A stretch of 64,000 nt of DNA from Eledone cirrhosa. Its lineage: Eukaryota. A model generated the notes under the pieces. It made no database searches and had not been told where the DNA came from. It saw nothing but the letters and a program-made list of their open reading frames with translations. The stretch lies in the NCBI GenBank assembly GCA_964016885.1, contig OZ024740.1:161386001-161450000 (forward strand). The letters are read 5' to 3'. Position 1 is the stretch's first letter. Each line of letters starts with the position of its first letter. The position numbers were made by a program, and so were the translations under genes. Shown here one piece after another: positions 1,465-58,865 of this stretch.

Positions 1465-1543
<79 letters not shown>

Positions 1544-1748
1544 TATAAGTATGTATACGTACATACATATATGTATACAGACGTACAGTAGTATGTATAT
1601 ATATATATACATATATGCACACATATATATGTACGTATCGATTCACCGAACATTTATTATAATGTTCGGTGTGTTTGTAAACAAACATCCCGAATTAAGC
1701 CGTACAGTGTCTAGCAACCATCGTTGCTCATTTGTTCAACACTGACAA

Positions 1749-1797
1749 AGGAACGCTGTACTAGTTTCAAGCTATCGTCAGCAACGTATACCTTCCT
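1749..1797 (-). ncRNA. Type I hammerhead ribozyme, stem II partly deleted (family A)
   Basis: Minus strand reads ACGTTG-CTGACGA-TAGCTT-GAAAC-TA-GTA-CAGCGT. Confidence 0.6.
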
Positions 1798-2440
1798 GCC
1801 AGATGATTGAACGTCTGAAAGTATATACTTTCCTTATGCATATTAACGGCTGAGCAGCCTAATTTACATATCGAGTGAGTTAATCGGCCGGGCACACCGA
1901 AAACGATAAACTGAAAAAATGAAACGAAATTTCATTTCTCACTCTTAGTACGGCTGTTACTTAAATATAAGTATGTATACGTATATACATATATGTATAC
2001 AGACGTACAGTAATATGTATATGTATATATATACATACATGCACACATATATATATGTACGTATGGATTCACCGAACATTTATTATAATGCTCGGTGTGT
2101 TTTTAAACAAACATCCCGAATTAAGCCTGGCCGATTAACTCACTCGATATGCAAATTAGCCTGCTCAGCCGTTAATATGCATAAGGAAAGTATATACTTT
2201 CAGACGTTCAATCATCTGGCAGGAAGGTATGCGTTTATTATAATGCTCGGTGTGTTTGTAAACAAACATCCCGAATTAAGACGTACAGTGTCTAGCAACC
2301 ATCGTTGCTCATTTGTTCAACACTGACAAAGGAACGCTGTACTAGTTTCAAGCTTATTAGCTATCGTTAATATGCATATCGTTAATATGCATAAGGAAAG
2401 GATATACTTTCAGACGTTCAATCATCTGGCAGGAAGGTAT

Positions 2441-2483
2441 ACGTTGCTGACGATAGCTAATAAGCTTGAAACTAGTACAGCGT
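2441..2483 (+). ncRNA. Minimal type I hammerhead ribozyme (family A)
   Basis: ACGTTG-CTGACGA-T.AGCT.AATA.AGCT.T-GAAAC-TA-GTA|CAGCGT. Stem I ACGTTG/CAGCGT, stem II AGCT/AGCT, palindromic stem III ACTAGT, GUA triplet. Confidence 0.85.
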
Positions 2484-2748
2484 TCCTTTTTCAGTGTTGA
2501 ACAAATGAGCAAAGATGGTTGCTAGACACTACGGCTTAATACGGGATGTTTGTTTACAAACACACCGAGCATTATAATAAATGTTCGGTGAATTCATACG
2601 TATATATATATATGTGTGTGTGCATGTATGTATATATATATACATACTACTGTACGTATGTATACATATATGTATGTACGTATACATACTTATATTTAAG
2701 TAACAGCCGTACTAAGAGTGAGAAATGAAATTTCGTTTCATTTTTTCC

Positions 2749-2807
<59 letters not shown>

Positions 2808-4410: not shown

Positions 4411-5380
4411 TCTTCCTTTATTTGCCACAGGGGCGTACAAAAATAGGGACATTAGAAGACGTGACGGCGGGGGTTTTACATAAAATCTTTAACAATGATA
4501 AATAACAATAAACTATATAAAAATAAAACAATTGAAATCCCCATTAGGGAGGGAGGGTAACGCTAATGCGGGGTTGTTTTACACCCTGTGGATAGAACAA
4601 CCCTCAACACCAGGAACACGTTTTGTAGGTGTCCCCGTCTTCCCTCTGTTTATCTTCCTCAACCTACAGGTTTATATACAGAGAAGGCCCATTCACTTGG
4701 GCCATTTTCGCCACATTCACCCACCTTTCAGCGAATTTACTGGGGTGTAGCACCTCTCTCTCCACTCTCACCTTCCTTCTAAAGTGGTACTTAAAGAAGG
4801 GGATGAGTTGTTGTCCGGAGAGAAAGGTGTTTGCCCTCAGTCCTTTTAATCTTGTCCACCATATTACCTCTTTCGCCATAGCCACCAGACAGAGGAAGAC
4901 CGCCTCTCTTTCATTCTCAAATGAAGGCGGCGGAGTGATCTTCACAATGGACTCGGTTGACAACTGGATGCGTCCTACACGTGACAGTAGCTGTTCGACA
5001 TAATTCCACAGGTCGGTCACTCCTGGGCACTGAACAATTGCATGCAGAACGGTTTCGATGTCCTGCTCGCATCTTGGACAGGTCCTTTTTGTAGGATCTC
5101 TGCCAGGGCGTCCGTGCCTGTAGATTTTGTCTCGAACTGGTAGAGCTCCTCGGTAACACTGCCAGGCCAGAGACCTCTGGAAGTTATCCATAGGCCCTGG
5201 ACGGAAAGTCCTCCCGAACAGACTGGTCAGTTCGTCTTCCTCAATGCCTAGAGTTTCCCCGAGAACGGCGTCGCACTTATCCTCCACTAATCCTGTATAG
5301 AATTTCGAAGTGGAGTCTCCGCTGATTGCCGTTTCCGCTTGGTAGAGGGCTGTGAGCGCCTGAAGGCACTCGATGTGCCA
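4411..5380 (-). mobile_element. 5'-truncated L1/Tx1-clade LINE (C-terminal zinc-finger region + 3' UTR) inside a (GATA)n tract
   Basis: ORF 4664-5287: LAWQCYRGALPVRDK...CPRCEQDIETVLHAIVQC (zf-RVT-like). GATA repeats at 4395-4410 and 5381-5407. Confidence 0.75.
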
Positions 5381-11271: not shown

Positions 11272-11343
<72 letters not shown>

Positions 11344-11396
11344 GAGATTCTACAGGACTAGACCTGTTTCATTCTTTAGAAATCATCAGGAATCTC
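11344..11396 (-). ncRNA. Type I hammerhead ribozyme (intact core)
   Basis: Minus strand reads GAGATTC-CTGATGA-TTTCTAAAGAAT-GAAACAGG-TCTAGT-CCTGTA|GAATCTC. Stem I 7 bp, stem III ACAGG/CCTGT. A mutated mirror copy lies on + at 11397-11448. Confidence 0.85.
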
Positions 11397-11530
11397 AGAT
11401 TCCTTATGATTTCTAAAGAATGAAACAGTTCTAGTCCTATAGAATCTCTTCTATATTAAAACTTTTATACTCTGCTATGTATTGAGTACCTTACTTACTG
11501 TGGTTACCTCCGATTCAACCCTGAATAAAG

Positions 11531-11950: not shown

Positions 11951-15560
<3,610 letters not shown>

Positions 15561-21224: not shown

Positions 21225-21279
21225 ACTGCTATATATATTTCAGTGACAGCCATCTTTGGCTGTGACCTCTTCAGGCAGT
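21225..21279 (-). ncRNA. Type I hammerhead ribozyme
   Basis: Minus strand reads ACTGC-CTGAAGA-GGTCACAGCCA-AAGA-TGGCTGTCACT-GAAA-TATATA-TA|GCAGT. Stem I 5 bp, stem II about 10 bp, palindromic stem III. Confidence 0.8.
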
Positions 21280-23195: not shown

Positions 23196-23810
23196 TCTTT
23201 TGTTTGTTTTACGTTCATGTAGTTGTTCTATGCTGTCTCAATAAATAGATTTTACTGAATATAAATTTAAGATAATATATATACATAATTGCAAATGAAT
23301 CGAATATTTTTATTAATATTCGAAAAACTCAGATTATAATTATTGTTTTCAGCCATGTAGAGCGATAAACTATTTGTTTATTATTTGAATATGACAAAGC
23401 CCGCCATTAATCGCTCGTATACATGTTTGGCCTGTCTGCTGATATGCAAATCTGGCTGATCAATGGGTCTGCTAATATGGAGATCTGACTGATCAGCCAG
23501 TCTGCTAATATGCAAATCAGGCCGATCAGTCTGTATATTTTAGAAAATATCATATATTGTCACTAGTTCTGACAGTTGGCAGGTAAGCAGTATACTGTAC
23601 TGATGAAGGGTAATCACCCAGAAACATTAGTGTCTGCCGTTCTGTTTATATGCCAACACAAGAGCTAGAATGACGGTGCCATTCTACTGACATGGCTATA
23701 GAGAGGCTGTTTGCATTATTGCAAATGAATCGAATATTATTATTAATATTCGGAAAACTCAGATTGCATTTATTGTATTCAACCATGTAGAGCGATAAAC
23801 TATTAGTTAT
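23194..23810 (+). mobile_element. Non-coding HHR mini-element (family C, ~430 bp period) between (TA)n tracts
   Basis: Direct repeat TTGCAAATGAATCGAATAT...CCATGTAGAGCGATAAACTATT at ~23289-23375 and ~23719-23805. HHR at 23594-23640. Confidence 0.75.
23594..23640 (+). ncRNA. Type I hammerhead ribozyme (family C)
   Basis: ACTGTA-CTGATGA-A.GGGT.AATC.ACCC.A-GAAACA-TTAG-TGTC|TGCCGT. Confidence 0.8.
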
Positions 23811-27342: not shown

Positions 27343-27382
27343 ATCGTCCTGATGACGGTGAAAGCTAGAAACGCGTTGGCTG
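27343..27382 (+). ncRNA. Minimal hammerhead motif (weak stems)
   Basis: ATCGTC-CTGATGA-CGGTGAAAGCTA-GAAAC-GC-GTT|GGCTGT. Palindromic ACGCGT stem III. Confidence 0.6.
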
Positions 27383-27922: not shown

Positions 27923-28832
27923 CATTTCACAGAACTTATGTTCATCGATTTCAGGCACTTGACTCCTTCTTCCTCCCATTTGACCTGTGCGAAATTCTTT
28001 CCTTACTCACATTTCGACCAGGTTTGATGGTCTTTATTCTCTCTCGTCCACGATTTCACAGAACTTATGTTCATCGATTTCAGGGACTTGACTCCTTCTT
28101 CCTCACTTTTCGTTGCATTACCATCTTTGTTTGTTTACTGTCTCGCTCGTTCCCCCGATTTACGTGTCCCAACGACTTTCTTTAGCCGTTGCTCGCACCC
28201 ACCAGAGGTATATGGTCTTTAAAGCAATGAAATACCAATGAAGGTTGGAAGATCACTGATGATGGACTAAATTTATTCATATGTAACCCATTTTCAACCA
28301 CGCAGTATGTCATGTTTTCATATTTTTCATATATATTTTCCTCCGATGTGACTCGTCTGTTTCTTTTCTTACTGCTTCCCCTTTTCTCTGTATCTCTCAC
28401 TTCCTTTTACCCCCTCTACCAGTTACTCTCTCTGTTAGCCTCATCCTCACACTTTCACTCACTCACTCTCTGCTAATCCCTCTCCTACGTCCTCCCGTTT
28501 GACCTGTGCGAGATTCTTTCCTCACTCACACTTCGACCAGGTCGGATGGTCTTTATTCTCTCTCGTCTACGATTTCACAGAACTTATGTTCATCGATTTC
28601 GGGGACTTGACTCCTTCTTCCTCCCGTTTGACCTGTGCGAAATTCTTTCCTTACTCACATTTCGACCAGGTTTGATGGTCTTTATACTCTCTCGTCCACG
28701 AATTCACAGAACTTATGTTCATCGATTTCAGGGACTTCTTCCTCACTTTTCGTTGCATTACCATCGATTTCAGGGACTTGACTCCTTCTTCCTCCCGTTT
28801 GACCTGTGCGAAATTCTTTCCTCACTCACACC
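27923..28832. repeat. ~129-bp tandem repeat in two blocks (27923-28125, 28490-28832)
   Basis: TTCACAGAACTTATGTTCATCGATTTC recurs near 27925, 28054, 28573 and 28703. Confidence 0.85.
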
Positions 28833-37281: not shown

Positions 37282-37322
37282 AATACATATATATATACAT
37301 ACATATATATATACATATATAT

Positions 37323-37367
<45 letters not shown>

Positions 37368-37402
37368 CATATATATATATACATACATATATATATACAT
37401 AC

Positions 37403-37481
<79 letters not shown>

Positions 37482-37708
37482 GATACATATATATATACAT
37501 ATATATACATATATATACATATATATGTATATACATATATATATGTATATACATATATATATGTATATATATATATGTATGTATATATATATATATGTAT
37601 GTATATATATATATATATGTATCTATATATATATATATATGTATGTATATACATATATATATGTATATACATATATATATGTATATATATATATATATAT
37701 ATACATAT
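37027..37708. repeat. (TA)n/(TACA)n microsatellite, ~680 bp
   Basis: Direct reading of the sequence. Confidence 0.95.
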
Positions 37709-39750
37709 TACGCGGGCGGTGGTTTGTACCGTGACGAAAGTCTTTTGACCATGACTAAGTGCGGACACCGTGCTTGCGACAGGTTCAGAAAAGAACTCAC
37801 AGCCTTCTTTAAAGGCTTCAACCTCTCCATACAGGTTGAGGCCAATCTCTCGGTCGTTAATTACCTTGACCTTACGCTTAATTTATTGAATGGGTTGTAT
37901 TACCCGTATAGAAAGCCAAATGATACGCTTAATTACATAAGTAAGCATTCCAACCATCCTGCCAGCATAACCAAGAACCTGGTAAGAAACGTTTCGTTGA
38001 GGCTTTCCCGTCTTTCCACCAACGAGCGTATTTTCGACGACCATTCCACTTATTACAAGGAAGCTCTTGCTCGAAGTGGATTTGTCGATAAGGTAGCATA
38101 TACAGAGTACGAAAATAGACCTAGAAGAAATAGATCCCGTCGCATTTGTTGGTATAACCCACCATATAATAGGGAGGTGGCCACACCTTTAGCTAAGATC
38201 TTTCTTTCCCTTATTACGAAGCATTTTCCTCCTACACATAAATATAGTAAAATTTTTAATAGAAATACTATTAAAATGTCTTACTCTACGACTCCTAACC
38301 TTGCACATAACATCACAGCTTCAAATTTAGCTAAACTACCTAGCCGTAGGGACACGTGCAACCCTGTAGTTAGTACTAACTGTAATTGTAGGAATCGGGT
38401 TGATTGCCCCTATCCGGGAAATGCCTCTCTAGTAACATTGTCTACAAATGTAAGGTTGTAACACCCACGTCCCGTAGGGACTACATAGGGTTAACCGCCA
38501 ATAGATTCAAGAGGCGTCTTTACACGCATACCCATTCTTTTCGTTACCCTCTAAGAAGGAATATGACGTCACTTTCAGCTTATATCTGGAGTCTAAAAGA
38601 CAACCACACCCAATATAAGTTACACTGGGAGATCCTAGCTAGGGCTAGATCGTATAACGGAAATAAAAGACCATGTGACCTCTGCGCCGCTGAGGCCCTG
38701 GAAATACTCTACGCCACGGACCACATCTTAAACAAAATATCTGAGGCAATTTCGGCTTGTAAACATAAATTGCACTAAACTTTCCTGTATTACAGCCCCA
38801 CGTTATACCCTAACGGATAGTACGATCTATACGTGGATATTTTACGTCTTGATGTGGGAGCTAAGTAAATGTTTTGTTTATACCATTACTTATTTGCATA
38901 GGTAAGTATATATTACCCGTATGTTTCGTGAAGGTACGTATACCTTCTCGTACATATATTTGATTGTTTATGTTTGGCGTATAATTTTTTTTTTTATTAT
39001 TCTGGTACATGTGGTTTGGCTATGTGTATACGGGAGTTTTGCGTCTGTGTGAGTATGCAGGTTCGTACGTATGTAGGGTGTGTGTATATGTGTATTTCAT
39101 GTTTTGGTTGACTTACGTCTCCGAACATTCGTGTATTTACATCTAGGTATGTGTGTGCGCATGTTATATACGTATTTATTTATTTATATACGTTTATTTA
39201 ATTATTTATTTATTTGTATACACGCATACACACACACACATATGTATATGTGCGTGGTTTTGTATACCTATGGTAAGTGTTTTGCGTATGCTTGTGTATG
39301 TACGTATTTATTTGCGGGTATGTATTTATTTCTATTACTTCTGTATTGTATTTATTTACTTGGTTCTTAACTCTGTAGCGGAGATTCATTCGGTCTCCTA
39401 GTTAGAATTTTAGTCTACGACTTCTGCTATACCATTTACGTGGTTTTGTCTTTGCGTGCTGCTCCACATATGATGTATTATCTTCGTTTTTTTTTCGTTC
39501 ATTGCCAGAGAACGTCTCTATGAACCACCTAAGAGAACATTAGTCTTTTATACCATAAAAGTGGTTCTGTCTTTGCGCGTAATTGTTTTTCACCGCTCCT
39601 ATTAATGACGTATCTTATTCGCTTTTTCCCGTTCTTTGACAGCGAACATTTCCACGAACCAAAGTATCGTCTTTCTGTCTTCCTTGTTAGTTTCAGAAGA
39701 TCCCGTTAAGGGTGAAAGCAGCGATTCTTTGCTTAAACTTTAATCTGTTA

Positions 39751-40899: not shown

Positions 40900-43800
40900 A
40901 CTTGGGGAGGGTCATATTTGTGTAATACTGCCAGAATTAATAACAGAACGCACTCACTGTTTGGTTGGTTTTCGCTTTTCGCTTCTGTGTCTTTTATATC
41001 GGTAATCTAATTTATTCGGTCCTCAATGTTGCCATTGACTGACCAACGGTCAAAAATAATACAGATACAATATAGACACAAACACATATATATAGTTTAT
41101 CAAAGTTATTTCATCTGCAACATCGTCAGTGGTGCTATTGTTTCCTCCCGTTACATTGTATGTCTACGCCATCTTTATTTAGTCTGTTTATATATTTATT
41201 TATTTATTTGTTTGTTTGTTTATTTTATTTTGTCTTCTTTGCGCATGCGTTTGCGTGTGTGTATAGAGTTTTGTTTGATGTGTGTTCGTGATTGGGTGAC
41301 TGTGTATTGGTTAAAGTATTCTATCTTTACTAGTGTGTTTATATGTGTTTGTTGTTATTGTGCTTGTGTATGTATTTATTTATTTATTTATCTATTTATT
41401 CATTTATTTATACTTCTCTTAGGTCAGTGCTGTTTGTTTGGGTGTTGTTATTATTCCATTCATTCTTTCTGTTTAGTCTTGGCCTTCTAAGTTCTATTTC
41501 ACTGGCCTCTCTGATTTGCCTATCTGTTGGGTCTTTTCTATGTTTAGATATTATTCTAATTTCTATGTTGTCTATGTTACCGTCGTGTTCTTGTCTGGCA
41601 TGTTCGTATAGTACTGACCCGTTTTTTCGTCCTTTTAGTCCCCCCCCCCCAGTGTTGGTCTATCCTTTCACCTATGCTACAAGCTGTCTCGCCTATGTAT
41701 GTTGTTGTCATGTTTCTGCAAGTACCCTCTGTACATCTTATGCTATAGACTACGTTTCTAGTTTTACAGTTTATCCGGGGGTTTACCTTACATATGATAC
41801 ATTTCCTATTAGTACAGTGGGTTTTCTTAAAAGGGTAGGTTTTGCTGATCAGGGATTTTATGGTGGTTCCTGGCTTTTCTACCACCTTAACCTTTAAGTG
41901 GGTCTTTCTCAGGGCCTTTCTACGCTGGTTAGCTAATTTCCCTCCAGGGGTAGCGTCCACAAACATGACACTCTGGTATCTCTGGTTGTCGTACCATGAG
42001 GTGGCTTTCCCTATCTTATGTCTAGCCCTATCTAAGCTATTCCATGATTTGCTCCTGTATAATGGGCAAATTCCTTTCATGTCCAGTTCTATGAGGGTCT
42101 TATACTTCTCCATGGCTCCTTCGTATACTCTGACTCTGTCTCTTTGGTTGTAGCCAGAGAACTGCATGTGGTTGATGAAGTGTTGGATGTGTCTTTCCAT
42201 TTCTGTTTGGTCGCACATGCGGGACACATTCTTCATCACTCGTACCAAATTTGCGATCAGAATATTAAACTTAGCACTACTGGACATTGCTGAGTTTTTG
42301 AGTATCAGGTATTTGAGTATCAGGTATTTGGAGGCCATGGGTTTAGCATAGTGTGAGTGGAGAATTTGGGCTCTCTCGTCTATAGTGTTAATCTAGAGTT
42401 CCGTGTCTAATACAGGTAGTCTATTGTTAGGGTGTTTGGAAGGGTAGTCGATAGTTACAGTTATACTTTGGTGTATGGAATTAGCTATCTGCTGGATGCT
42501 TTCCATTGTGCTACGTTCTAAATCAAACTTGTTAGTGCTCTCTAGTGGGGATGTTCTTATAACTATATTGATATCGTCTACATAACGAGAGTACATGATG
42601 AGGTCTATGGAGCTCTCATTAAGGAGATCTTTAAGTCTCCTTTCCCACCATACCATAAAAAGGTTGGCAACATCACCAGCTATGCTGACGCCAATGGCTG
42701 CTCCCTCATTTTGGGTGTAGATCTCGTTGAACTTGAATATCTGGCCCTTTAGGATAGTTTTGATACTAGCCCCTATTGCATGTGCGACCATTTTTCTCAC
42801 CTGATCATTGTTTGGGGGGGTCCGTATAGCTTTGGTCCACCCAATCCACCTTCCCATGGGAGTCTTTTTTGCCATTGAGGTTATGGTGGGGTGTCTACCT
42901 TTTATGGGTCTACTAGGGCAGAAACGTCTAAGGTCATGGTTGTCTAGGTAGTCAGTGTCGTAGGTAAGTCTAAGTAGGAGGCCCAGTTCGTCTGTGTCGA
43001 CGTCGCAGAACTGCACCTCACTCTCAATGTTCATCTCCACACATTTTTCCACAGCAAAATCAATGTTAATGGATGGGTACAGTGATACCACATCCATGCT
43101 GCCTATTATGCAATTGGATAGGTTCCTGTTTTTGTTGCACTCACTGATTCTGAGGAGGTCCTCTGTACTGTCACATACATCTGGGGACATCTTGATTATG
43201 GGGCGTATAACCATTGAGAGGAAGTAGGAGATCCTGTAGTTGCTAGCTATATTAGCTCCGCATACGGGTCTTGTTGGTGGTCCTGTTGTCGGGTCGTCGA
43301 CTGTCTTGTGGTCTTTGCGGAGCCCATACAAGGGTGGTATGCCATTGTTAGACGCCTGGAAGTTGTTGGCAGTGCGTCTGCTTGGCTTTAGGATGTCAGT
43401 CCACATCATCATGTGAGCGTTGAGGATTTTCTCTCTCCCATCATGTGTTTGCTGTGCAATTTCGCTCGTGTTTGTGATGTGGGGTTGCATAGCCTTGATG
43501 TAGTTCGGCATGCTATCTATTGACATCCCTCCAGACTTATCTGTGGGTAGACATACTACCTCACCATCCCTTGTGCGCTGCTTGAGGCTAACCAAGCCTT
43601 CTACAGGTTTCCTCCCAAGTTGTTGGGCCTCTGGTCTGCTCTGTCTCTTAGTATACCGGTCTACTATTTGTCTAATCTTATTTCTAGCTATGGTGAACTG
43701 TGCCTCTGTCTCGTCATCTATTTGTTGTGGTATGCAAACTCTTTTATTAAAGGGCAACCTCGTAGGATAGATATTACCCATCTTATATGTTTTGTCAGCT

Positions 43801-44873
43801 GGGTTGAAAAATAGTTTCTCTAAGGGGTTGTCATTATATCTATCGTCATAGTTGTGTGTGTTGCTATTATTGTTATTATGGTGGTTGTTGTTGTTACTGT
43901 TATTTCTACCATTGTGGTTGTTACTTTTATTATGTTTCTTGTTTTTGTTGTGTCTATCATTAATGTTGCTACATGTATTATTTCCATTATTACCACTGTG
44001 GTTGTTGTTGTTGTTCGTATTGTTACCGTTATTACTACTGTGGTCGCTGCTACTGTGTATGTGGTTAATGTTTCTATTATTATTATTAGTGTGGTTATTG
44101 TTGTTGTTCTGTCTATCGTTAGTATTATTACCATTATTACTATTTCTCACTCTCCTGCTATTGTTATTTTTATGGCTGTTATTTCTATACTCAGAGTTAT
44201 TGTTTATATTAATACTACCATTATTATTGTTGTTGTTGTTGTTGTTTACTTTTTTCCAACGTATTTTTGTGAAACACTTTTCCAGCTCCGTTTTTCACTC
44301 CATAGGGTTAATCTTTTTGTAGATGGCAAATTTTGGTGGTAGCTGCAGGATTTGTTGTTCTTGTTCACTGATTAAAGTGTTCCCATAAATATTTACTGTG
44401 TAGTCATTGGTAAATTCTTCCGGTAATTTTACATCAGTCATACGGATATTGTTGATGTTATCTGGGTATTTTTGAGAATATTCTATTTTCCTTTCTTGTA
44501 GTTTTTTCTTATTCATCCATTCTAATTTCTTATTTAAATGCCTATTGCATTCGTTTCGAGGGTATTTCCTTTCACGTCGGATGACGCTCATGAAGTCATC
44601 CCTTTCGTTTGGTGTGGCGAGATTTCGGACTTCCTTACCGTTAATGCGTTTCTGTCTGTAAAGTTCGTTGACTTTTGTGTATGTTGTTTTTTTCATATTA
44701 ACTGTTATTGTGTGTTTTAGTCGTTCAGCTTCTGTTTTGTTCAATAATAAATTATTTACTTGTTTTGATATGTTTGTTGTGTATATTTTGGAGGAAACAC
44801 AGTGTTTTAAGAAGCAGATTTGTTCTGTTGTTATTGTAGTTTTGTGTAATTACTACCATCATATATATCTATA

Positions 44874-45527: not shown

Positions 45528-47572
45528 CAGTGGGTCCTTGATAAACGGTAGTTCTTTATCCGGTAAATTCACAGATACGGTTTTGGGTAATTACTACCAT
45601 CATTTCTAAATGGTAAAAAAAATTCACAGATATGGTTTTTGGTCCTGTTTTGTTTATATAACGTCCTGTGAATATTGCTGATGCAGATGGAAAGCCAAAC
45701 GCATGAAGAAGAGCCTGACGTTTGAGATAAAGCTGGACATTTTGAAAAGGAAGGAACAGGACAAGGTACGTTCGCCATAAGTCGTAACTTAGGCCTAGCC
45801 CAGTCTACAATCTGTACTGTTTTAAAAAATGGTGAGGCTGTCAAAAAAGCTGGGGAGAATGCTACGAGTCTAGAGAGTAAATTGCTGACGAAACATCGTG
45901 AGCCGATTATGGATAGGATGGAAAGGTTGTTCAAAATTTGGATCGACGACCAAAATTGTCAAAAGATGCTTCTGTCTTTAAATGTAATCAGTGAGAAAGC
46001 ATTGCCCATTATTGACAGGCTGAAGACTGAAATTGGGGTGGAGAACTTTGTATTCAAGGCAAGCAAAGGCTGGTTTGATAAGTTCAAATGACGTTCGAGT
46101 CTTCACAACATAAAAGTTACAGGTGAGGCTGCCAATTCCGACAAAGAGAGTGCTGAAAAATTCAAGGCAGAGTTAGAGAAATGCATTGCAGAGAAGGAGT
46201 ACAGCAAAAAACAGGTTATTAATTATGATGAAACAGGACTTTATTGGAAAAAGATTACCAGTAATACTTATATTGACAAGGAGGAGAAAAGTGCGAAGGA
46301 GTTCAAAGCCTCAAAGGACCGCGTTATTCTGTTACTTGGAGGGAATGCAGAAGGAGATTTAAAGCTAAAGCCACTCATTATCTACCATTCGGAAACTCCA
46401 ATAGCACTCAAGTGGTTACTTAAGCAATACCTACCAGTGATATGGAAGTCTAATAAGAAGGCATGGCTGATCACTTCAATTCACCAGGATTTTTTTACCT
46501 CATATCTGTCACCAACCCTTAAGGAATATGCATTAGCTAACAACATTGCCAACCGTTTTCTGCTATTAGTGGACAACGCCCCCCAGCCGCCCACGGGCAA
46601 TGGAAGACTGGTCAGCAAATATTGAGATTTTGTTTCCCCCCCCCCCCCCAATCACCACAGCTCTCATTCAGCCGATGGATCAAACAGTCATCAAAACATT
46701 TAAGGCATAGTACCAGCAGAGAACCATGCTGCAGCTGATAAAGGGCACAGGTGGGCCTGACAAGCCCACGATCAGGGAATGTTGGAAATTGTACAACATC
46801 AAGGACGGCTTAGACAACATCAAGGCATCTTGGGAAGAAGTGAAGCAGTCTACCATGAACTTGGCCTGGAAGAAATTATGGCCAGCATGTGTGAATGACT
46901 TCCAAGGCTTTGCTGAGGACATTGGTGTGATAAAAAAAAGATATTGTAAATCTCTGGCTTAGAGCTGGCTTCGATGGTGTTAATGATGATGATGTGCAAG
47001 ACCTTTTGGAAAGCCGAGCTGAACCACTCTCCAATTATGAACTCATAGAACTAGACAAGGCGATACATAGAACTAGACAAGGCGAAACAATCTTAGAAAC
47101 CCTGAAAGAGCGTGACCCCAACCCTGCTAGGAGCAGTAAAGTGGCTCAAGACATCGAGAAAAGCGTCAAGATTTTCCAAGAAATGTATGAAGCCAAAAGA
47201 AACACTGCCAAACATTCCTCCATCTACTCTTTCTTCAAGCCAGTCACACAGGCCAACCGTGCTACAGCTGGCCCTTCAACATCCACTGCAGTCAACGAGT
47301 TTGTTGGTTTTGAGCCTCCCACATCACCCTCATCCTCCCCTTCCAACTCAGTCCAAGATGAGCAAGGGCTGAAACCCGTACTGTCATCCGATGGACTACG
47401 CGGCATGTGTAAGGTACAGTAAATTAAAAAAACATTATTTCTTTTCTGTAGGGATGACTTTTTCGATGTGCTGGAATGCATCCCTATCTATTTCTGTTAT
47501 AATGGGTTCTTTATACGGTAATTCGATATAAGGTAAGGATTTCAGGAACGCATATATACCATATATCGAGGT
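45528..47572 (+). mobile_element. Tigger/pogo-family DNA transposon, transposase pseudogene
   Basis: Starts TA|CAGTGGGTCCTTGATA. Contains FKASKGWFDKFK, NYDETGLYWK, KASKDRVILLLGGNAEGD.KLKP, LLLVDNA, LIQPMDQ.VIKTFK, with stops and frameshifts. Confidence 0.9.
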
Positions 47573-47586
47573 ATATATATCAATGT

Positions 47587-47658
<72 letters not shown>

Positions 47659-47662
<4 letters not shown>

Positions 47663-48260
47663 AAATAACGAAACGAAATTAAATTTCGTTTCGTTTGTAA
47701 CTCACTTTTGTATGACTGACGCTTAAACAATTAAGTTAAAAAATTAAGTTAAAAAATGTACATCCACATATGTATACTGAAATACTAGTATGCATATGAA
47801 TACACACACGTGTACATATGTAGATGTACCGAGTTTTTCACTGGACACTTTACTGTGAGTGTCCAGCTATTCTGTATGTAAACACACAGACAAACCGGTT
47901 TTTAGAGTCATACTGGTTTTCGAAGAAACACCTTTCCTCTATTCTCCAGAAAGCCAGACAAGGAATATTGGACTAGTTTCGATGTTGTTACATCTCATCA
48001 GCAATATTTACCTATCTTCCGGCCTTTCTAGAGAATCGTAAAAGCACATATCGTTATATGCTTTTTCTATGAAAATTAGTAGTGGGCAGACTAATTTGCA
48101 TAGAGCGTGAGTACGTACCGGTTCAGCGGAGACGATAAAAACAAATAACGAAACGAAATTAAATTTCGTTTCGTTTGTAACTCACTTTTGTATGACTGAC
48201 GCTTAAACAATTAAGTTAAAAAATGTACATCCACATATGTATACTGAAATACTAGTATGC

Positions 48261-48262
<2 letters not shown>
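47659..48262 (-). mobile_element. Non-coding HHR mini-element (family B, ~480 bp period) between (TA)n
   Basis: Direct repeats ~47659-47797 and ~48138-48262. Motifs parallel family A (GAAACGAAATT..TTTCGTTTC, CTAATTTGCATA, ACGATAAA). Confidence 0.8.
47964..48008 (-). ncRNA. Minimal type I hammerhead ribozyme, fully paired (family B)
   Basis: Minus strand reads AATATTG-CTGATGA-GATGT.AACA.ACATC-GAAAC-TA-GTC|CAATATT. Confidence 0.9.
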
Positions 48263-48291
<29 letters not shown>

Positions 48292-48719
48292 TATAGAGAT
48301 AGATATATATATATATACATATATATATATAGATATTCAAAACAAAAAACAGCGGAGGACGCGTTTCGCACCTTTCCGACAGACAACCTGTCCCCCACCC
48401 CGGAAAAAACCCCCAGTTGATGGATGTGAATCCGAAATATATAGGGACAATTAAATCTCTCCCAAGGTAACTCGCTCTCGTGTTGTTATTTTAATTTTAT
48501 CCTTTATACTCTTTCCTTCATTCCTCTACACGTCTTATACACACCATGCATCTCAACGTACACCCACTTACATCTCTCTCTCCACCACCGGATCTTGTTA
48601 CCCGGAGATTTACCCATTTGCATTGTCGAGGCTTCCAAACGACTTAAAGATATTTACCTATTATTCCAAAATGCTTCAAGCAAACTTCAATACTCTCTTA
48701 TATACATATATTTATATAT

Positions 48720-51700
48720 GAAAACAGGGAGAAAGAGACGATTATTAGGAAGAAAAATATTTTTTTTCCTTTTTCATTTCTCTCTCTCTTTTTTCTGGGT
48801 TAGAAAATGATTAAAACGAAATGTTTTACTTTATGTGAAGTGTTAAGGTATTAGTTGATTTATTTATTAATTAACAATAGCATTTAATTATCTATTTGTA
48901 TATTTAATAATTATCTATTACAGGTTTCAGCATTTTTATGCATTATCAAATGATAGTGGTATGTATTGGTGTAGAATGGTGGTATTGCACATGTTAAAGA
49001 AATGGTGCAGAAAGAATAATGTTATTTACAAACAAGGTTTATGAAATGAAAAGAAAAAAGAAAAAAGAAAAAAAGAGGCGTAAAGTAGAGCATAAAAAGT
49101 CAATGTGAAAGAAAAAATAATGTAATTTACAGGCATAGTTCTTGAAGTTAAGCAGATCAAAATGTGTTAATATAGCAAGGGTGCTTAGTTTATCCATGAT
49201 TCCATGATGGAGGCAAATGGTGGACTGTCGTTTGATATGATTTCCCTTTTTAGAGAGTTAATATGCAGGGGGAGGCAATTCATGCTGGATGATATTTAAT
49301 TTATTTAAGAAGAAGGATTAGGTGAGGGAGGTAATTCTTGTAAATGTTTGATTGTTTGTTCCAATTTTAGTTTGGTCCGAAGTTTAGTGAATTAAGTAGA
49401 GGTTGGAATTTGTTAATGAAATATGTTTCCTATTGGTACGATGGATGAAAGTAGCGTTGTCTATGAATTTGTAAATGGGGAACATTTTAAAGTTTGGATG
49501 TTGGTTGTGTGTACAATTAGCGATATGTTCACTAAATGCAATCTTTCTGTATTCCTGTATTTTAATTTGTGATTTATGGACGGTCATACGTTGACGGCGG
49601 CTGTTTTTTGTCTGTCCTATGTAGTACTGTGACAACCTGAGCAGGTCAAAACATAGATTAGGTTTTCGGATGCACATGTAAAGTTGTGTTTAACTGTGAA
49701 ATGTTGTCCTTGTTTAAAATGGAATGTTGAACCTTCTATTAGATTTATGCATATGCCACAGTTGGGCCTTCCGCATTTTGTTACTGTAGGGTTCATTGTG
49801 AGGGTTTGTTGGATTTTGGCTTGTGTGAGGATGTTTTTTAGGGATTTAGGTTGTCTTTTGATCTTTATGATGTTTTGTGTTTGGAGGATTTTGTTCATTC
49901 TTGGGTCTCTTTTTAGTAAAGGAATGTTCTGGAGGATGGTGTCGAATGCCTCATTGTTGAGGGGGTTGTGTGTGGAGATGTATGGTAGAGTTTTTGTTGC
50001 GGTTCATTCCTGGGTTTGGGGTGTCTGAGTTCCTGGATGTCGAGTTTTAGGGCACGTTGGAATCCATTGTTGATTAGGGATGGTAGGTAGTTTCTGCTGA
50101 TAAGTGTATTTTTTAATTCTTCTAGTCGTGTGTAGCATGTGTATTTATCTGAAACTATTGTGCAGATCCTTCTGGCTAGGTTATAAGGAATTGCCATTTT
50201 GGTGTATCTAGGGTGGCACGAGTTGAATGGGAGGTATTGTTTGGAGTATATGTCTGTTTCTATGTTGTTGTTTGTTTTCTTGATGATGATGTCGAGGAAA
50301 GGGAGTTGTTCATGGCTGTAATTCATTGTGAATTGTAAGTTTGTGTTGAGTCCATTCAGAAGGGTTTTAAACTCAAACAGTCTATTTATACTTTCATGCC
50401 AGAGGATGAAGCAGTCGTCCAAATATCTCTTCCAGTTCTTTTCTATGTGTTGGTAGAAGTGGTTGCCGTATTTGTCTAGAACTTTGCGGTAGAGAGTGGT
50501 TTCCAAATATCCCATGACAAAGTTGGCGTATGAGGGGGCTTCTTTCGTACCCATGGCGGGCCCAGATTTCTGTCTGTAGTATTTGGCATTGAATTCGAAG
50601 TAATTGTTTTCCAAGGTGAATTTGAGTCCCTCCAACACAAATTCTTTAGGGGTGCGCTGTGGGAGTTCACTAGGGAAATTTTCAAGCCAGAATTGTATTA
50701 CCTCTATAGCTAGGTTATGTGGGATATTGGAATATAAATTGATGACATCAAAGGTTACTAGTAGGGTATATTCATCATTGAGTGTTGTTGGGAGGTGGTT
50801 GAGCATGTCAAGGTTGTCCCTTATGAAGCTTTTTATGTGTTTTAGGAAAGGTTTAAGCAGAATATCTAGGAAGTTGCTTAGGCGGTGGGTTACACATGTG
50901 GTGCCTGCTATTATGGGTCTTAATTTAAGGTCATCAGGAGGGGCTATATTGATGTAAACGTCTGTGGCTTGCTTGCAGGCCCAACCTATTACTTCGCTTT
51001 TGTGTGTCTTTGGGATACCGTAGAAGAGGCTGGTTCTGCTTTTGAAATTGGTGATGTAGTTGTATTCCTTGTCTGTAAGGCCTTCTTTGTAAAGGATTGT
51101 TAGGGATTTTAGGTTTCTCATTATTTTCTGTTGTGTGTAATGTTGGGCCTTTCATAATATGTTTGGTTTTCTAGAGTTGAGAGTACTAGAGTCGTGTAAT
51201 AATCTGTCTCCATAAGGACTACTTCACTCCCTTTATCTGCCTCTTTGATTGTTAGGGTTTTGCCGTTTTTTAGACTGTTAAGACCATTCCATTCTTTTTT
51301 GCTTAGGTTTGTTTTTTGTTTATGTCTGTGTAGGTGGTGGTATGGGTAATTAGTAATGTGTTCGCAGAATTGATCGAGGAATTTGTCCTTGCCTTTTGGT
51401 GGGGTGTAGTTGCTTCTATTTCTGGCTATTGAGTCATCCTCATTGTATTTGTCGTATAGTTGCTCGCTGAGTCTTAGTTTTCTACAGAATTCTGCAATAT
51501 CTTCCTTCATTTCGGGGTAGTTTGGTTGTTGGGGAGTTGGTGTAAATTTTAGACCTTTGGAGAGTATGTTGATTTGGTCTGTTGTTAATTCTTTAGAGGT
51601 TAAATTAACAATTTTTATTGCATTTTGTGACTCCTGTGTGTTTTGTGTTATCTTGTTATCCTGTGTCTGTGTGCTGTGTCTAAAAAATGATTACGGAAGT

Positions 51701-53304
51701 TGTGATGGCTGTTGAAGTTTGGATGTCTCTTATAGTTGTATTGGCCCCTGCTGCTGTTGTTAGATGGTGTGTAGCTGTGGTGGTTGTTGAGTTTAGGTTG
51801 TATCGTGTGGTTGTATTGAGCCCTGCTGATGTTGTAGGGTGTGTAGATTTGATGGACGTGGTTATAGGGTGTGAAGTTATGGTGGTTGTTGAAGTTGGGT
51901 TGTATCGTATCGTTGTACTGAGCACTGCTGTTGTTGTAGGGTGTGTAGACTTGGTGGTAGTTGTAGTAGGGTTGTCTTGTGTGGTTATATTGAGTCATGC
52001 TGTTGCTGTTATATGGTGTGTAGCTATGGTGGCTGTAGTGGTTAGGGTGTCTCGTGTGGTTGTATTGTCCCCTACTGGTGTTGTTGTAGTAGGGTGTGGT
52101 TAGTGGGGGAGGGTAGATTAGGGTTTCCTTATAGCTGGTGTGTGGTTGTGAGGCCCCGTGTGACATGTGTGGTAGTTGTGTATTTTGGTTTCTACGTTGG
52201 AAGTAATGATGGTTGTGGGTTTGTTGTGTAGGGATGTTAGGGGGGTTGTAAGTGTGGGGGGTTCTATGGTTTCTCCTGGTGGAAGAGAAGTTGTAGTGTC
52301 TATCTTGTAGCTGATGTTTCTCTATTACTATATTTGTTGCTTGGGTCCGTGTGGTAGTTGTGTGGAGGATGTAGGAGGTAGGGGCGAGGTGATGCCTACT
52401 TTTTTTGGTATTTGGGGAGGTATTGTTTTTTTTTTGTTGTTGTTGGTTGTTGTATGGTGTTTGGGTGTTGATTGAGTTTTCTTGTTATTATGGTTTTAAT
52501 GAAGGGGTTCTTGGATGTGTGTTCTTTTTGGAAAAGTGTTTCATAGTTAGAGAACCAGGTTTCGTTTATTTCCCAACGTTGAAGGGATTTTAATTATTCC
52601 TTATTACAGTCCTCTAACCATAATTTTGAAATATTTTCTAGGGTGGTGTCTTTGGTTTTATTGATAATTGCTTGATTAATCTCATCGTCGATTGATTTGA
52701 TCCTATCTTCATTTGCTTGGGCTCTCAATTTAAGGAGTTCAATTTCGGTTTTTATGTTATCAAGTGCCATTCTTTCCCTGAGGCGTCTTTGAGTCTCGGG
52801 TTCGTTTGGGATGGATTTAATTTGTAGTTTGCGGGGGATGATTAATGGGGATGAGTTAATCCATTTTTCATAGATCTCCGCTTTGTTATTGTTTTGTATC
52901 ATCTTTCAAAATGAGAATTTCCTGTTTTTAAAAGATGTGTACCAGTGTGGTATTAATTGGTTTTTTATTTGGTAAGTTGTAAGTGTATTAGTGTCATGTG
53001 TATTTTCGTTCGTTTGAATAGGGTTTGTGTTGTTATTCAGGTGTGTTTTTATTGTTTCACATAAGTTGTTGATATTGTCGTTGATTTCATAGGATGTGTA
53101 TTTGGGAATTGTTTCTGCACTTGTAGAGTTTAGTTTGTTGGTGAGTATTGACAAATTAGAGTTAATTTTTTGTAGTTCTTGGAGTATCTCTTGATTGGTG
53201 CTAATGAGAGTGGAATCTGTTTTTGTTTTAGTATGCATTTTCTGTATCTCGTGTGGGAGTGAATAATAATAATAATAAAATGCGGGGAGGAAGCACACGA
53301 GTTA

Positions 53305-53307
<3 letters not shown>
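48720..53307 (-). mobile_element. Near full-length PLE (long N-terminus, RT, GIY-YIG), frameshifted
   Basis: ORFs 52906-53298, 52594-52902, 51121-51510 (KEADKGSEVV), 49913-51121 (FYGIPKTHK, LRPII, WKRYLDD), 49617-49898 and 49384-49677 (NLIYVLTC..YYIGQT). Confidence 0.92.
48912..48955 (-). ncRNA. Hammerhead motif, U3-A8 core variant, in PLE 3' terminal region
   Basis: Minus strand reads TATCAT-TTGATAA-T.GCAT.AAAA.ATGC.T-GAAAC-CT-GTA|ATAGATA. Homologous motif at 12235-12276. Confidence 0.6.
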
Positions 53308-53369
<62 letters not shown>

Positions 53370-53652
53370 TTAGAAACACACAGATACATGCGGACACACA
53401 CATATATACAGGAGTGCATCCGCACCCAACTGTGAGTTAAGGGTGCCAACTTCACCGATGTTGCTCAATGAATGACTGGGACAGACCAATTCAGTTGAAC
53501 TAGACTGAACCAGTATCAGAGTTAAAAATACATTATGAAGAGAGAAGAAACATTTAGATATAATTAGTAATAAAATGTATCATACCTAAACTGCTCCTAA
53601 ATTCCTCGACTACTATATATATATATGAAAACAGGGAGAAAGAGACGATTAT

Positions 53653-54371
53653 TAGTACATCGTTCCTTTGTCAGTGTTGAACAAAAGGGCAACGATGGTT
53701 GCTAAACACTGTACGGCTTAATTCGGGATGTTTGTTTACAAACAAACCGAGCATTAAATAAATGTTCGGTAAATCCATACGTGCATACATATTTATGTGT
53801 GCATGTATGTATATATATATATATATATATATACATACTACTGTACGTCTGTATACATATATGTATGTACGTATACATACTTATATTTAAGTAACAGCCG
53901 TACTAAGAGTGAGAAATGAAATTTCGTTTCATTTTTTCCATTTATCGTTTTCGGTGCGCCCGGCCGATTAACTCACTCGATATGCAAATTAGGCTGCTCA
54001 GCCGTTAATATGCATAAGGAAAGTATATACTTTCAGACGTTCAATCATCTGGCAGGAAGGTATACGGTGCTGACGATAGCTAATAAGCTTGAAACTAGTA
54101 CATCGTTCCTTTGTCAGTGTTGAACAAAAGGGCAATGATGGTTGCTAAACACTGTACGGCTTAATTCGGGATGTTTGTTTACAAACAAACCGAGCATTAT
54201 AATAAATGTTCGGTAAATCCATACGTACATATATATATGTGTGTGCATGTCTGTATATATATATATATACATACTACTGTATACATATATGTATGTACGT
54301 ATAAATACTTATATTTAAGTAACAACCGTAGTAAGAGTGAGAAATGAAATTTCGTTTCTTTTTTTCCATTC
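53653..54371 (+). mobile_element. HHR mini-element family A, ~1.6 tandem units (443-nt monomer)
   Basis: TAGTA|CATCGTTCC at 53653 and 54096. Ends in (TA)n. Confidence 0.88.
54064..54106 (+). ncRNA. Minimal type I hammerhead ribozyme (family A)
   Basis: ACGGTG-CTGACGA-TAGCTAATAAGCTT-GAAAC-TA-GTA|CATCGT. Confidence 0.88.
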
Positions 54372-54616
54372 ATATATATATATATATATATATATACATA
54401 GAATATTTCCGTATCGTGAGAGAGTAAAGGTTTAAAGGGATAGGAGATACATATAGTTAATTGCCAAAAGCTGGTGCATTTGTGCTCACTACTTGTGCCT
54501 ACAGGGTTACATATCGGAGGCGTTAATATTTAGTGGGCGAGAATATAAGCAGAGCGGGTTACAAATGAAAGGAATACAAAGGAGAATACATGCTGTTAGA
54601 ACATGTCTATACAAAA

Positions 54617-54658
54617 GCACCTACGTACGTTTCGCCCGAACAGGGCTTCTCAAGGGCA
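54617..54658 (-). ncRNA. Hammerhead motif, U3-A8 variant
   Basis: Minus strand reads GCCC-TTGAGAA-GCCC.TGTTC.GGGC-GAAACG-TA-CGTA|GG. Stem I is weak. Confidence 0.55.
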
Positions 54659-55018
54659 TACAATTCTAGAGACTGTTCAGTACAGAACCCAGAAGGGGTT
54701 TTAAAGTGATAGTTACATTAAAGTTCATTTTTGATTCATTTGTTGTTATTGTCACCGATCAAGGGGAGTAACTCTGGCCGGTGTTTGAATAAACGTCCCC
54801 AAATGGCTTATATATATATACATATATATATACATATATATGTATATATACAAATATAACGAAGGAGTTGTGGTACGGAACCAAATGGACCATAACGCAC
54901 CAGAGTACTCAATACTTAGTGTAGTAGAGTGGGTAATAGGAGAAAGTATGACCCCGACGTCCAGAAATAGCCGTCGAAACGGCTTGAGCTCTGCCGTCGA
55001 GGTCATACTTTCTCCTAT

Positions 55019-55074: not shown

Positions 55075-58000
55075 TTAGGAGGTGAGTTTTATTGTAGCAC
55101 AATAAAGCAATGCAAATATCGGATAAGTAGCACTCTACTGTTTGTAGGACTGGAGTATAAATAATATAAGATCAAAAGATGGTTAAAAGAGTTCCAAGTA
55201 TTTTATTATGCGCATTTCAAATACAAATATCATCATGATATGATATCTGCGTTTTAATCAGATAAAATAGGGATACATGATATGAAGGTTAAAAAACACT
55301 TGTGAATAGTGAAGTTTTAAATCAACATATAAAAAATAATTTAAGATTGATGTGTGATATTGGGAAAAAGTGAGGGGGGGTGGAAAGGGTAAAAAAGAGG
55401 AGATGAGAGTAAAGTGGGGTGGGGGAGGAGTATAAGAAAGAAGGATGGGAGAGGAGGAGAGATGGTGATATATAGAGAGAGATAGCCTTTACAACTGAGA
55501 AAAATATATATTGTCTCACAGAGAGAAGTTAAAAAGCCATTGGAAGATAATAGATAATTTAAAAGAATTTGAAATCAAAAGTTGATGAAGAGAAAAGGGG
55601 GTTAAGAATAATATTAAATTAAATTAAGGTTTGTATATTGAAGGGTTTAATAATATGTGCGAGGAAAAGAGATTGTTAATATGTATTATTAAAATAAAAA
55701 TATTAATGTTATTAAGGATATAATGTGAAAAGAAGTAGAAGAGTGGATGAGTTATGAATTTAGAGGAATTAGTTTGTGTTTAAGTTTGTTTTTATGTAAT
55801 GTAATATGTGTGCGTAATATATGTAAATAGTTTGTTTAAAAATGAGCGCAGAAAGCAAAGAAGAAAAGAATGTTTAAGGAAGAAAATATCTAACATCAAA
55901 ATATATGTTTACGAAATATTTTCTAATGGTAATAATATAATATATTAAAGGAAATTAGTTAGGGTTTAAGTTTGTTTTTATGTATTGTAATATGTAATAT
56001 CTAAAAATCAAACGAGCATGAAAGGAAGAGATAAAGAACTTAAGGAAGAAAAATCTAACGTCAAAAAATGTTTATGTTTACGAAGGACTATTAAAGGTAA
56101 TACTATAATGTATTTAAAAGATAATAATAATTTTTATGGCCAATGATATGAAGAAAGATGGAAGAGTGGATATGTTGTGGTGAGTAATAATAATAATTGA
56201 GAAGTAGTTAGGAAGTAAAAGTACAGATTAGAGGTTAGAAATTAAAAAGAAAAAGAAAAGAGGAAGAAAGGAAAGTGATAAAGAGGAATGATATAGAATG
56301 AGTAACTTGTATTATATAATATATAATAAATAATATTAAAATAAGGTAGAAAGATGGGTATATTTAAAAAAATATATATATATAAGCCTTTGAGAAAAAG
56401 GATTTTAAACAAGTAAAGAATTAGTTATTAGCTGTATTCTTTATGGAATGTTCTGTGGAATTTATGCAAGCAGAGAGAAAATAAATTAGTTCGTCTATTT
56501 ATTATAGAATCTAAATTAGATATAATGGTAAATTTCTCAGATAGGCAAAGATTACACGTTCTGGATAGGGAGGCATTCAAGTAGGGAGAGGCAGAACAAA
56601 CTTTCCTCCAAGAGATGTTATAGTTAATATTTTTGTCTTTCAAGGACCATATGAGTTCTGAGAGTGCCGTGTTAGTTCTTTTAAGTCGGTATCTAAAAGA
56701 CGAATTGTGATTATAAAATCTCACTTTGAAGGAGGTGGAAGTGGAACCAAAATAGGTAAAGGAATTAGTATCAGTTATAACCTTACATTCATAGACTAAG
56801 TTTTTTTCAAGACAATGGTTATTGAGAGGACATTTAGTTTTAACAGGGCAATTACAATTGCGATTAGAGAAATTAGCAGAGTTATTAACAAGTGACCTAA
56901 TGTTATTTATAGGAGGAATTGGATTGGAGAAGTTATTTACGATAGGAATAATAGTTTCCTGATTTAGGTTGGTATTATGAACATTCAACGAAGTTACATT
57001 TTACGTCGTATTTGAGTTTGCAGAATCTAGCCTAGAGTTAACAATGACGTCGGGAGTACTACTGCTATTATTATGACACTCAGTGTTGGAAGGATGTGAT
57101 TTAATATTTAATATTTTATTGTTGTGTTTAGAGATAATGTTAGAGATGTTGGTGGAGGTGGAATAGGAAAATGTTATTGTATGTTTGTTAAATATTTTAC
57201 TATAGATATGTGAGGGAGGGAAGCATTTATCTAAGGCCCTAAAGAATAGTTTAGGAATATTATTATTAATAGAAATAGAGAAAGTAGCATTATACCAGAT
57301 TATATTTTTGTATCTAGGTCATTTATTTAAGTTACTGGAATGATCATAATTAATTATTTTACTGTAAGACCTTCTAGGATTGGTTTCTTTACTGTATTTA
57401 ATTTTATCAGTATAACCGGCTTTAGAAAGTGCATTATTATAGTAATTGGCGTTAGCATCAAATATATTTTTATTAGAGGATAGGTTTGATATTCTTTTTC
57501 CAATATTACTAACTATATAAGTTTTAATGTTAGTGGGGTGGTTAGATTTAAAATTAACATAATTTAGATTCTCATTGTTTTTATGGTAAGGGTAATATAG
57601 GCCAGTGTCAAGATTAAGGGATATATCCAAGAAGTTAGCTAGTTTGACGTTGTTATCAAATTCGATTTTAAGATTATGTTGCTTAAAGAGATCACGTATA
57701 TTGTTCTTAATAATATTAAGGTTAACTAAATTGCAATTTAAGATAGTAAAAAGTCCATCGTCACGATAAATTCCACCGCGAAGTTGAGGAATTTTCCGAC
57801 TCAAAGAGTTCAAAATAAAGATACCAATTAAATCTGTCAATTGGGATGAATCGGATGCTCCCATTGTGATGTCGAAGTTGTTAGAGGTATCAGCTCTGGT
57901 CCAATATTCATTGTTGAACTCTAGGATGGTTTTACGTGCGGTGAGAATGATGTGAAGTTCATCTGTGGTGATGTCAGAATATTTAAATGCGAAAGATTGT

Positions 58001-58195
58001 TGAGAAGTGAAGGCGAAATAGAAGAATAGTAGCTGGCAATATCAAATTGAACAAATTTTAGTTTGTTTTTATTATTCAATTTGTTGAACCAGCCAATCAC
58101 TTCAGAAGTACCAAACCATAAATTTAAGTTCAAAGAAGAGCAATTACTCTGGCGCGTTATGGTCCACCTGGTTCCTTACCACACTTCCTTCGTTA
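55071..58195 (-). mobile_element. PLE (YRDDGL-type RT + GIY-YIG-like), 5'-truncated, flanked by (TA)n
   Basis: [69 protein letters not shown]. Confidence 0.9.
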
Positions 58196-58486: not shown

Positions 58487-58865
58487 TACAATATTAAATA
58501 AATGGAAACTATATTTATAAAACCATATCTATTTCATTATATATATTTCGGGGATATCATATTAACAATATGCTATGCCTTCCTCAGACAAAATACAATA
58601 TAAACAGTTTTATATATAAATATATTCGACATACCTTAATAACACCGACTTGCATTTGGAGAGGTTAAAACAGGCAGTCTGTTTTAACCTCTCCAAATGC
58701 AAGTCGGTGTTATTAAGGTATGTCGAATATATTTATATATAAAACTGTTTATATTGTATTTTGTCTGAGGAAGGCATAGCATATTGTTAATATGATATCC
58801 CCGAAATATATATAATGAAATAGATATGGTTTTATAAATATAGTTTCCATTTATTTAATATTGTA
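58487..58865. repeat. Palindrome with 187-bp arms (no mismatch seen by eye) and 5-nt spacer; each arm holds an HHR motif
   Basis: Arms 58487-58673 and 58679-58865. Plus-strand HHR 58759-58820: TTTTGT-CTGAGGA-long stem II-GAAA-TATATA-TA|ATGAAA. Mirror copy at 58532-58593. Confidence 0.9.

Follow-up and report, generated by a model that had tools for sequence, protein, structure and literature searches.

The window analysed here is a 64,000-nt stretch of the Eledone cirrhosa genome (contig OZ024740.1, positions 161,386,001 to 161,450,000), and at 53653-54373 it holds a short tandem element with a hammerhead ribozyme. The question raised by this locus is how such an element is written into DNA. 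For metazoan non-LTR retrozymes, a PLE helper and a circular template have been proposed but not demonstrated in the accessible text of the literature (PMC7229834; 10.64898/2026.07.22.740005); statements on published work below refer to the accessible parts of the papers cited. The element class, that of the animal non-LTR retrozymes, is already known. The 53653 element is a new member of it and very probably moves as a non-autonomous PLE.

Layout of the unit and its hammerhead

TAGTACATCGT occurs at 53653 and at 54096; these two occurrences place the predicted cut sites at 53657/8 and 54100/1 and define a 443-nt monomer, present in approximately 1.6 units with the partial second repeat ending at 54373, as the first-pass annotation of this DNA had described (Table 1). 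Repeat 2 differs from repeat 1 by approximately 11 substitutions and 3 indels. The unit had also been called ORF-less, and zero stop-to-stop frames of at least 120 aa were found to overlap the copy; at that threshold, the RT and GIY-YIG ORF of an autonomous PLE is absent from it. The ends of the copy sit inside (TA)n, where a target-site duplication longer than 4 bp cannot be distinguished.

Table 1. Positions in the window of the retrozyme copies, their parts and the adjoining elements
Feature	Position	Strand	Remarks
Second A-family locus, rearranged two-armed insertion	1536..2754	.	minus arm short end 1536, plus arm tail end 2754
Hammerhead with U·G pair, second A-family locus	2435-2487		
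Family B copy	47655..48264	-	hammerhead ~47960-48013, compensatory changes
Full-length but frameshifted coding PLE, RT + GIY-YIG	48707..53306	-	short end 48707, tail ~53270-53306
Piece of 595-bp tandem repeat family	53363..53613	+	in TA run between PLE end and PLE tail
TA run and last 29 nt of coding PLE 3' UTR (short end)	53614..53655	-	upstream partial repeat of PLE 48707..53306
5' junction	53653..53657	+	TAG, microhomology with adjoining PLE end; TA, element, upstream of cut site
Repeat 1, full 443-nt unit	53658..54100	+	between successive predicted cut sites
TA-rich palindromic middle	53769..53883	+	long predicted hairpin; length differs among subfamilies
Short 3'-end site in repeat 1	53885..53889	+	unit position ~228-232
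Tail segment, ~57 nt	53890..53945	+	two hairpins; short site to tail site (unit position ~285-288)
ATGCAAAT octamer	53982..53989	+	present in both families A and B
Type I hammerhead with extended helix I	54049..54117	+	predicted cut 54100/54101
Repeat 2, partial unit 1-288	54101..54373	+	stops at tail site
(TA)n target	54372..54400	.	adjoins 3' end of copy

Stem I of the hammerhead (54064-54069/54101-54106) reads ACGGTG/CATCGT and has 6 bp, with the AGG at 54058-54060 lying in a bulged AGG/CCT extension. The core consists of CTGACGA (54070-54076), GAAA (54091-54094) and CTAG-TA up to 54100, with a GUA triplet at the cut. Stem II (54077-54090) has 4 bp over a basal U·U; stem III, of 2 bp round a UA loop, lies within the palindrome ACUAGU. 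By the definition in PMC4209133, this is the canonical metazoan type I form with a short and palindromic helix III, a form thought to act as a dimer. Cleavage of the monomer would probably be weak because of the U·U at the base of stem II and the 2-bp stem III; the axolotl hammerhead HHR_Amex2 shares this basal U·U of helix II, and its monomer is a weak cutter (PMC7229834).

The double change in stem I noted at first pass, ACGGTG/CATCGT at 54058-54110 against ACGTTG/CAGCGT at 2441-2483, proved to be a swap found family-wide. A hand count of the first 100 listed of 22,943 matches gave the swap pair as G·U in 38, U·G in 48, A-U in 12 and U·U in 2; the 100 matches represent a small number of lineage states passed on by descent rather than 100 separate changes. 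The predicted covariation across copies holds between subfamilies, with two-sided changes in 8 of 22 pairs. In an alignment of 20 chosen rows, 94% of cells were paired, compared with 34-47% in slid controls; the two-sided changes in these rows are mostly an A-versus-B contrast and hence few independent events. Rfam gave no hammerhead match to the 53653-54373 copy at E values up to 10. The sister copy at 47948-48019 matched HH9 with 38.9 bits, under the 52-bit gathering score, and besides this match only simple-repeat miRNA matches were obtained over the window.

The core hammerhead pattern has 31,145 exact matches in the 3.0-Gb genome, against 0 for the control. Hammerheads of A type number 22,943 and those of the sister family B 8,984. 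The A type includes subfamilies A, C and D, whose units measure 424-502 nt; the B unit is usually 466-469 nt and approximately 70% identical to A. Nine clear insertions were found in 40 random stretches of 10 kb, from which roughly 67,000 insertions (31,000-128,000) were extrapolated genome-wide. The 53653-54373 copy has one complete hammerhead, many arrays of the family have 2-31, and the longest arrays carry up to 31 in a row. Family B is very young, with 99-100% identity between loci, and its two-armed arrays reach approximately 31 hammerheads (e.g., G000:C1:5.74-5.75 Mb). The loci studied form a mixed sample of best matches, position-ordered matches on contig 1, random stretches and PLE-centred searches. 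Contigs from four runs (kind unrecorded) were also matched to the family: in one run 12,456 did so, with both variants of stem I, and in each of the others 10-12.

By prediction, the 443-nt unit is strongly self-paired (z -8.1); folded without the TA-rich middle, the unit gave z -5.0 in A and z -10.1 in B. The predicted whole-unit fold has a similar branched shape in A, B, C and D and brings both ends together. Outside the TA-rich middle, the GC content of the unit is approximately 40%.

The snRNA-type promoter of newt satellite 2 includes an octamer. This satellite, which is reportedly driven by that promoter, is likewise a tandem unit with a dimer-type hammerhead (PMC7229834, PMC2220036), and by comparison with it we infer that the conserved octamer ATGCAAAT of the present unit is a candidate internal promoter element. 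An essential role as promoter is weakened by a young lineage of 7 loci in which the octamer is changed.

Insertion ends and the PLE footprint

Copies of the family end at two fixed 3' sites, namely unit positions ~228-232 (short) and 285-288 (tail) in A and 228-233 (short) and 299-302 (tail) in B. A TA repeat stands directly after 125 of 161 short or tail ends, and 5' truncation and partial tandems are present among the copies. Head-to-head pairs combine one short end with one tail end in 67 of 68 scorable cases; the exception has two short ends, and the number of pairs with two tails is zero. A further 39 of the 107 pairs seen were left unscored, with an end at the locus edge, an interruption or a cross-family shadow match. 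An intact coding PLE of this genome (784 aa, RT + GIY-YIG) behaves in the same way: 14 of its 14 scorable pairs combine a short with a tail end, and its tail measures 38 nt. Published descriptions of PLE insertions include arms in inverted orientation, a tail confined to one end and insertion at (TA)n (PMC8557442), with the tail bounded by two reverse-transcription start sites (PMC11167929). The earlier suggestion of mobilisation by PLE RT is supported by insertion at (TA)n, truncated 5' ends, inversion of arms and the two-site tail rule, in common with the coding PLE; judged from this footprint, the retrozyme family is very probably mobilised by PLE.

A start of the copy at its own cleavage site had also been claimed, and this is likely a coincidence. 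ATTATTAG closes the left neighbour, whose other copy, at 48707-48748, goes on from it into GAAG; because the TAG of TAGTA is shared with this neighbour, the element itself starts 2-5 nt upstream of the cut site. The family shows no pile-up there: arms starting no more than 3, 10 and 30 nt from the cut site number 1, 9 and 28 of 230, the expected numbers being 3.6, 10.7 and 31.2. The 5' start of the 53653 copy is an ordinary 5' truncation at microhomology, and as such is no evidence of a cut RNA template. Across the family, the 5'-end data point against run-off from cut ends, and the RNA templates would have been uncut or resealed at the cleavage site. The left flank was ruled out as part of the retrozyme, being the neighbouring PLE end and a piece of the 595-bp repeat.

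The neighbouring PLE (48707..53306) is 64-79% identical to the intact 784-aa PLE frame of the genome. It is a single minus-strand copy interrupted by the 595-bp repeat piece, and its frameshifted ORF extends down to 49388. The retrozyme, with its tail end, is joined head-to-head to the short end of this PLE, and the short-plus-tail rule holds across the two elements. Two of 67 single arms (L236 and L299) are joined antisense to PLE bodies, a weak 41-nt match in L030 having been set aside; in L090, found separately, an antisense retrozyme-PLE joint has the short end on the PLE arm. These three joints involve different PLE families. Recurrent chimeras with the neighbouring PLE family were not found, as 0 of 30 position-ordered short ends, from the 1,044 that exist, were joined head-to-head to a retrozyme. 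A one-event chimera is a possible origin of the joint in the window, and so are successive insertions.

The RNA template

One template per insertion is indicated by the C222T state, which is common to both arms in 15 of 15 two-armed B loci. Variants were called fixed when present in fewer than 3 sampled loci yet in all units of an insertion, and were read on the RNA strand. Among 18 fixed variants in B, A>G numbered 11 and T>C 2 (8 loci versus one shared variant), and among 21 in A/D the numbers were 6 and 0, making 17 versus 2 for both together. Singleton variants were without bias (A>G 8 versus T>C 15 of 143 in B; 33 versus 30 of 338 in A/D). Subfamily C was opposite, with fixed A>G 3 versus T>C 7 in 13 loci, which counts against the model given below. 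A>G on the RNA strand is the expected trace of A-to-I editing; polymerase or RT bias may also be the source of the excess. A one-unit change found in every unit of both arms suggests that one RNA unit was copied repeatedly per insertion, and this unit was likely a circle, round which such copying would run most simply.

Three clustered A>G changes mark one array in which the 18 full units do not differ from each other. The lineage to which these changes belong spans 7 loci and arrays of up to 25 units, and 58 of its 65 full units are identical. The 20-site array at G000:C1:30.83 Mb was considered as a case of fresh private editing, and this was rejected, since the three changes occur in 70 units at 7 loci and thus go back to one older founder event; a partly changed form was not seen among the first 100 of 3,176 matches. 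Given these shared changes, read-through of a long master array would also be conceivable. At L089, L100 and L112, both arms carry the same non-fixed variants, and older long arrays (L098, L099, L101, L228 and the 31-site array) are periodic mosaics, for which multimeric templates or later exchange are needed. In L100 (G000:C2:316969000-316974900), A369G is present in alternate units of one arm and in three units of the other, a pattern that an edited dimeric circle or conversion between arms would give. Misincorporation at the ligation junction was rejected, within-array variation not being concentrated there.

We consider it probable that the 53653 copy, one of tens of thousands with PLE-like ends at (TA)n, was written by the borrowed enzyme of a PLE as it ran round a circular monomer of RNA. 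Tandem arrays would be transcribed, and pairs of hammerheads, held together by their palindromic helix III (ACUAGU), are predicted to cut in dimeric form, freeing monomers of approximately 440 nt; by analogy to other retrozymes, a host ligase would close them. The PLE RT-endonuclease would then cut (TA)n, and the DNA ends would prime at two RNA sites 57-74 nt apart, the footprint of this step being visible and the enzyme presumed. Each cDNA would cross the sealed junction and run over 0.2 to over 15 units, after which two cDNAs would join head-to-head or one arm would join flanking DNA, as seen in the products. Later unequal exchange would give rise to the mosaics, which are observed in older arrays. 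Counting against this model, 8 of 9 Xenopus dimers were without cleavage in vitro (10.64898/2026.07.22.740005).

Also against it, uncut RNA was the main substrate in vitro of the Anolis PLE, the only PLE examined in this way, and hammerhead mutants were still inserted (PMC11167929). This agrees with a linear, largely uncut read-through transcript of an array as the template, on which the ends would prime near its 3' end, the arrays growing and homogenising by unequal exchange and gene conversion. Such a template is unlikely. It also explains the lack of 5' ends at the cut site, but needs an extra step to bring a one-unit change into all units of both arms, where the fixed variants are A>G-biased on the RNA strand. 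A hammerhead that looks weak as a monomer fits it, yet arms of up to 17 identical units would require 17 uncut hammerheads, and retention of the ribozyme with compensatory changes is poorly accounted for. Long old arrays are mosaics and L112 has a single variant unit second from the 3' end in both arms, as read-through would allow; non-fixed variants are, however, almost never common to different loci.

Copying of a linear cut monomer, with the RT leaving its 5' end for the 3' end of that molecule or of another one and so building tandems, is very unlikely. An accumulation of 5' ends at the cut site would be expected from failed jumps, but 1 of 230 lies within 3 nt of it; the 53653 copy itself, in favour of such jumps, begins 2-5 nt from it. 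Hammerhead conservation and unit-length periodicity would be accounted for, but recurring indels at unit junctions are not seen in B arrays, and jumps between molecules should mix the arrays, whereas young arrays are uniform. Finally, it is highly improbable that the unit is an ordinary pseudo-LTR of an unsampled coding PLE, which the first-pass annotation had named as the case against its reading, or a DNA-level satellite with a relic ribozyme. In favour of such an origin, many PLE families of the genome lie outside the sample, and one coding PLE family has a layout like that of the retrozyme, with a tail of 44 nt and a motif resembling a hammerhead 228 nt upstream of the short end. But the present unit forms ORF-less direct repeats in which as many as 31 hammerheads follow one another. 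When 67 single arms were compared with a library of seven PLE stretches and ten protein pieces, none was continuous in sense with a PLE body. Copies dispersed in the genome carry TPRT-type ends, and the form of the hammerhead is canonical metazoan type I rather than minimal PLE (PMC4209133).

Relation to known elements and setting in the genome

As in the metazoan non-LTR retrozymes of coral, mussel and axolotl, the family consists of ORF-less tandem units of a few hundred nt, with one type I hammerhead per unit, low GC and predicted self-pairing (PMC7229834; 10.64898/2026.07.22.740005). Its units of 424-502 nt are at or above the 150-450 bp of the metazoan retrozymes described in 2020 (PMC7229834). 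Cleavage and circles have been shown for metazoan non-LTR retrozymes, whereas they are predicted for the present family. In the accessible text of the same two papers, (TA)n targeting, head-to-head arms and two fixed 3' ends are undescribed for metazoan retrozymes. Homology to pLTRs is given for 24 of 57 Xenopus families (10.64898/2026.07.22.740005), whereas none was found here; the 3' ends of the four PLE families compared are not homologous to the unit, a point against the proposed model, and near these families there were only independent insertions.

Like PLEs, the family has 5'-truncated copies and partial tandems, an inverted arm that is itself 5'-truncated, a tail at a single end and insertion in (TA)n (PMC8557442, PMC11167929), as well as two RT start sites bounding the tail and the cutting and extension of both strands (PMC11167929). 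It differs in having no ORF and in a tail of 57-74 nt, compared with 30-40 bp in PLEs (PMC8557442). Both start sites of the retrozyme resemble the TA target, whereas that of the Anolis PLE is not homologous to the cut DNA; in vitro, the latter PLE showed no strand difference in start site (PMC11167929), whereas the arms here almost always differ.

A literature search, with subscription papers mostly outside it, found no cephalopod description of the family, nor a two-site rule, editing scars or chimeric arms for retrozymes. The main text of an Octopus vulgaris repeat paper contains 0 occurrences of "ribozyme". Related families may be listed in the supplements of PMC7229834 and 10.64898/2026.07.22.740005.

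Several other hammerhead-like motifs are present in the window. At 23430-23660 (+), three 33-nt repeats, two of them with the octamer TATGCAAAT, are followed by a motif with helix III CATTAGTG, which recurs in L242 and L361; this is probably a further family with an octamer upstream of the hammerhead. At 11340-11450, two short hammerheads in inverted orientation, with a longer helix III, lie between (TA)n runs; their motif recurs in L137, L149, L152, L155 and L354. Another inverted pair, of the long-helix-II type, is found at 58538-58587 (-) and 58765-58814 (+), and further motifs at 21230-21274 (-) and 27349-27377 (+). In the right flank, a motif recognised by eye at 54612-54670 (-), unscored by the motif scans, has the U3-A8 core variant, which is described in some PLEs (PMC4209133).

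At least three more PLE families are represented in the window (13382-15559, 37283-38778, 41577-44849 and 56428-58041). Three PLE endonuclease queries gave 15,680, 31,297 and 59,886 first-look candidates in the genome, where intact PLE frames of 784 aa and over 1,100 aa are present. A hammerhead beside the intact PLE in L218 was not counted as belonging to that PLE, as a true tandem junction in L220 is without it. The 595-bp tandem repeat family (53363-53613 in the window; L071) is young, with 1,321 candidates, many of them 100% identical; most matches stop at one position, which adjoins TA in the window, and no hammerhead was found in its unit. Broken DNA transposase-like frames, which we take to be Tigger/pogo-like, and a LINE zinc-finger frame (Pfam zf-RVT, below cut-off) were seen at 45569-47422 (+) and 4664-5455 (-). 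A 129-nt tandem unit occurs at 28482-28737 and 27924-28089, with a third copy 519 nt away.

The main additions made by the 53653 copy are the A-family tests, the negative 5'-end result and the head-to-head joint with a coding PLE. We tentatively propose that the PLE enzyme may be dimeric, its halves priming at the two fixed sites and chasing each other round one RNA circle able to carry A-to-I edits, so that up to approximately 25 identical units would be written at once; the halves may also hold different RNAs, by which retrozyme and coding PLE arms would be fused head-to-head in one event, as in the window. If this is true, retrozyme-PLE chimeras would name the helpers and show several PLE families serving the retrozyme. 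The one-short-one-tail rule bears on PLE insertion itself, in that the two DNA ends would prime at different sites. With a PLE footprint that can be counted in the retrozyme family and intact PLE frames in the same genome, the helper, two-site priming and the circle become directly testable.
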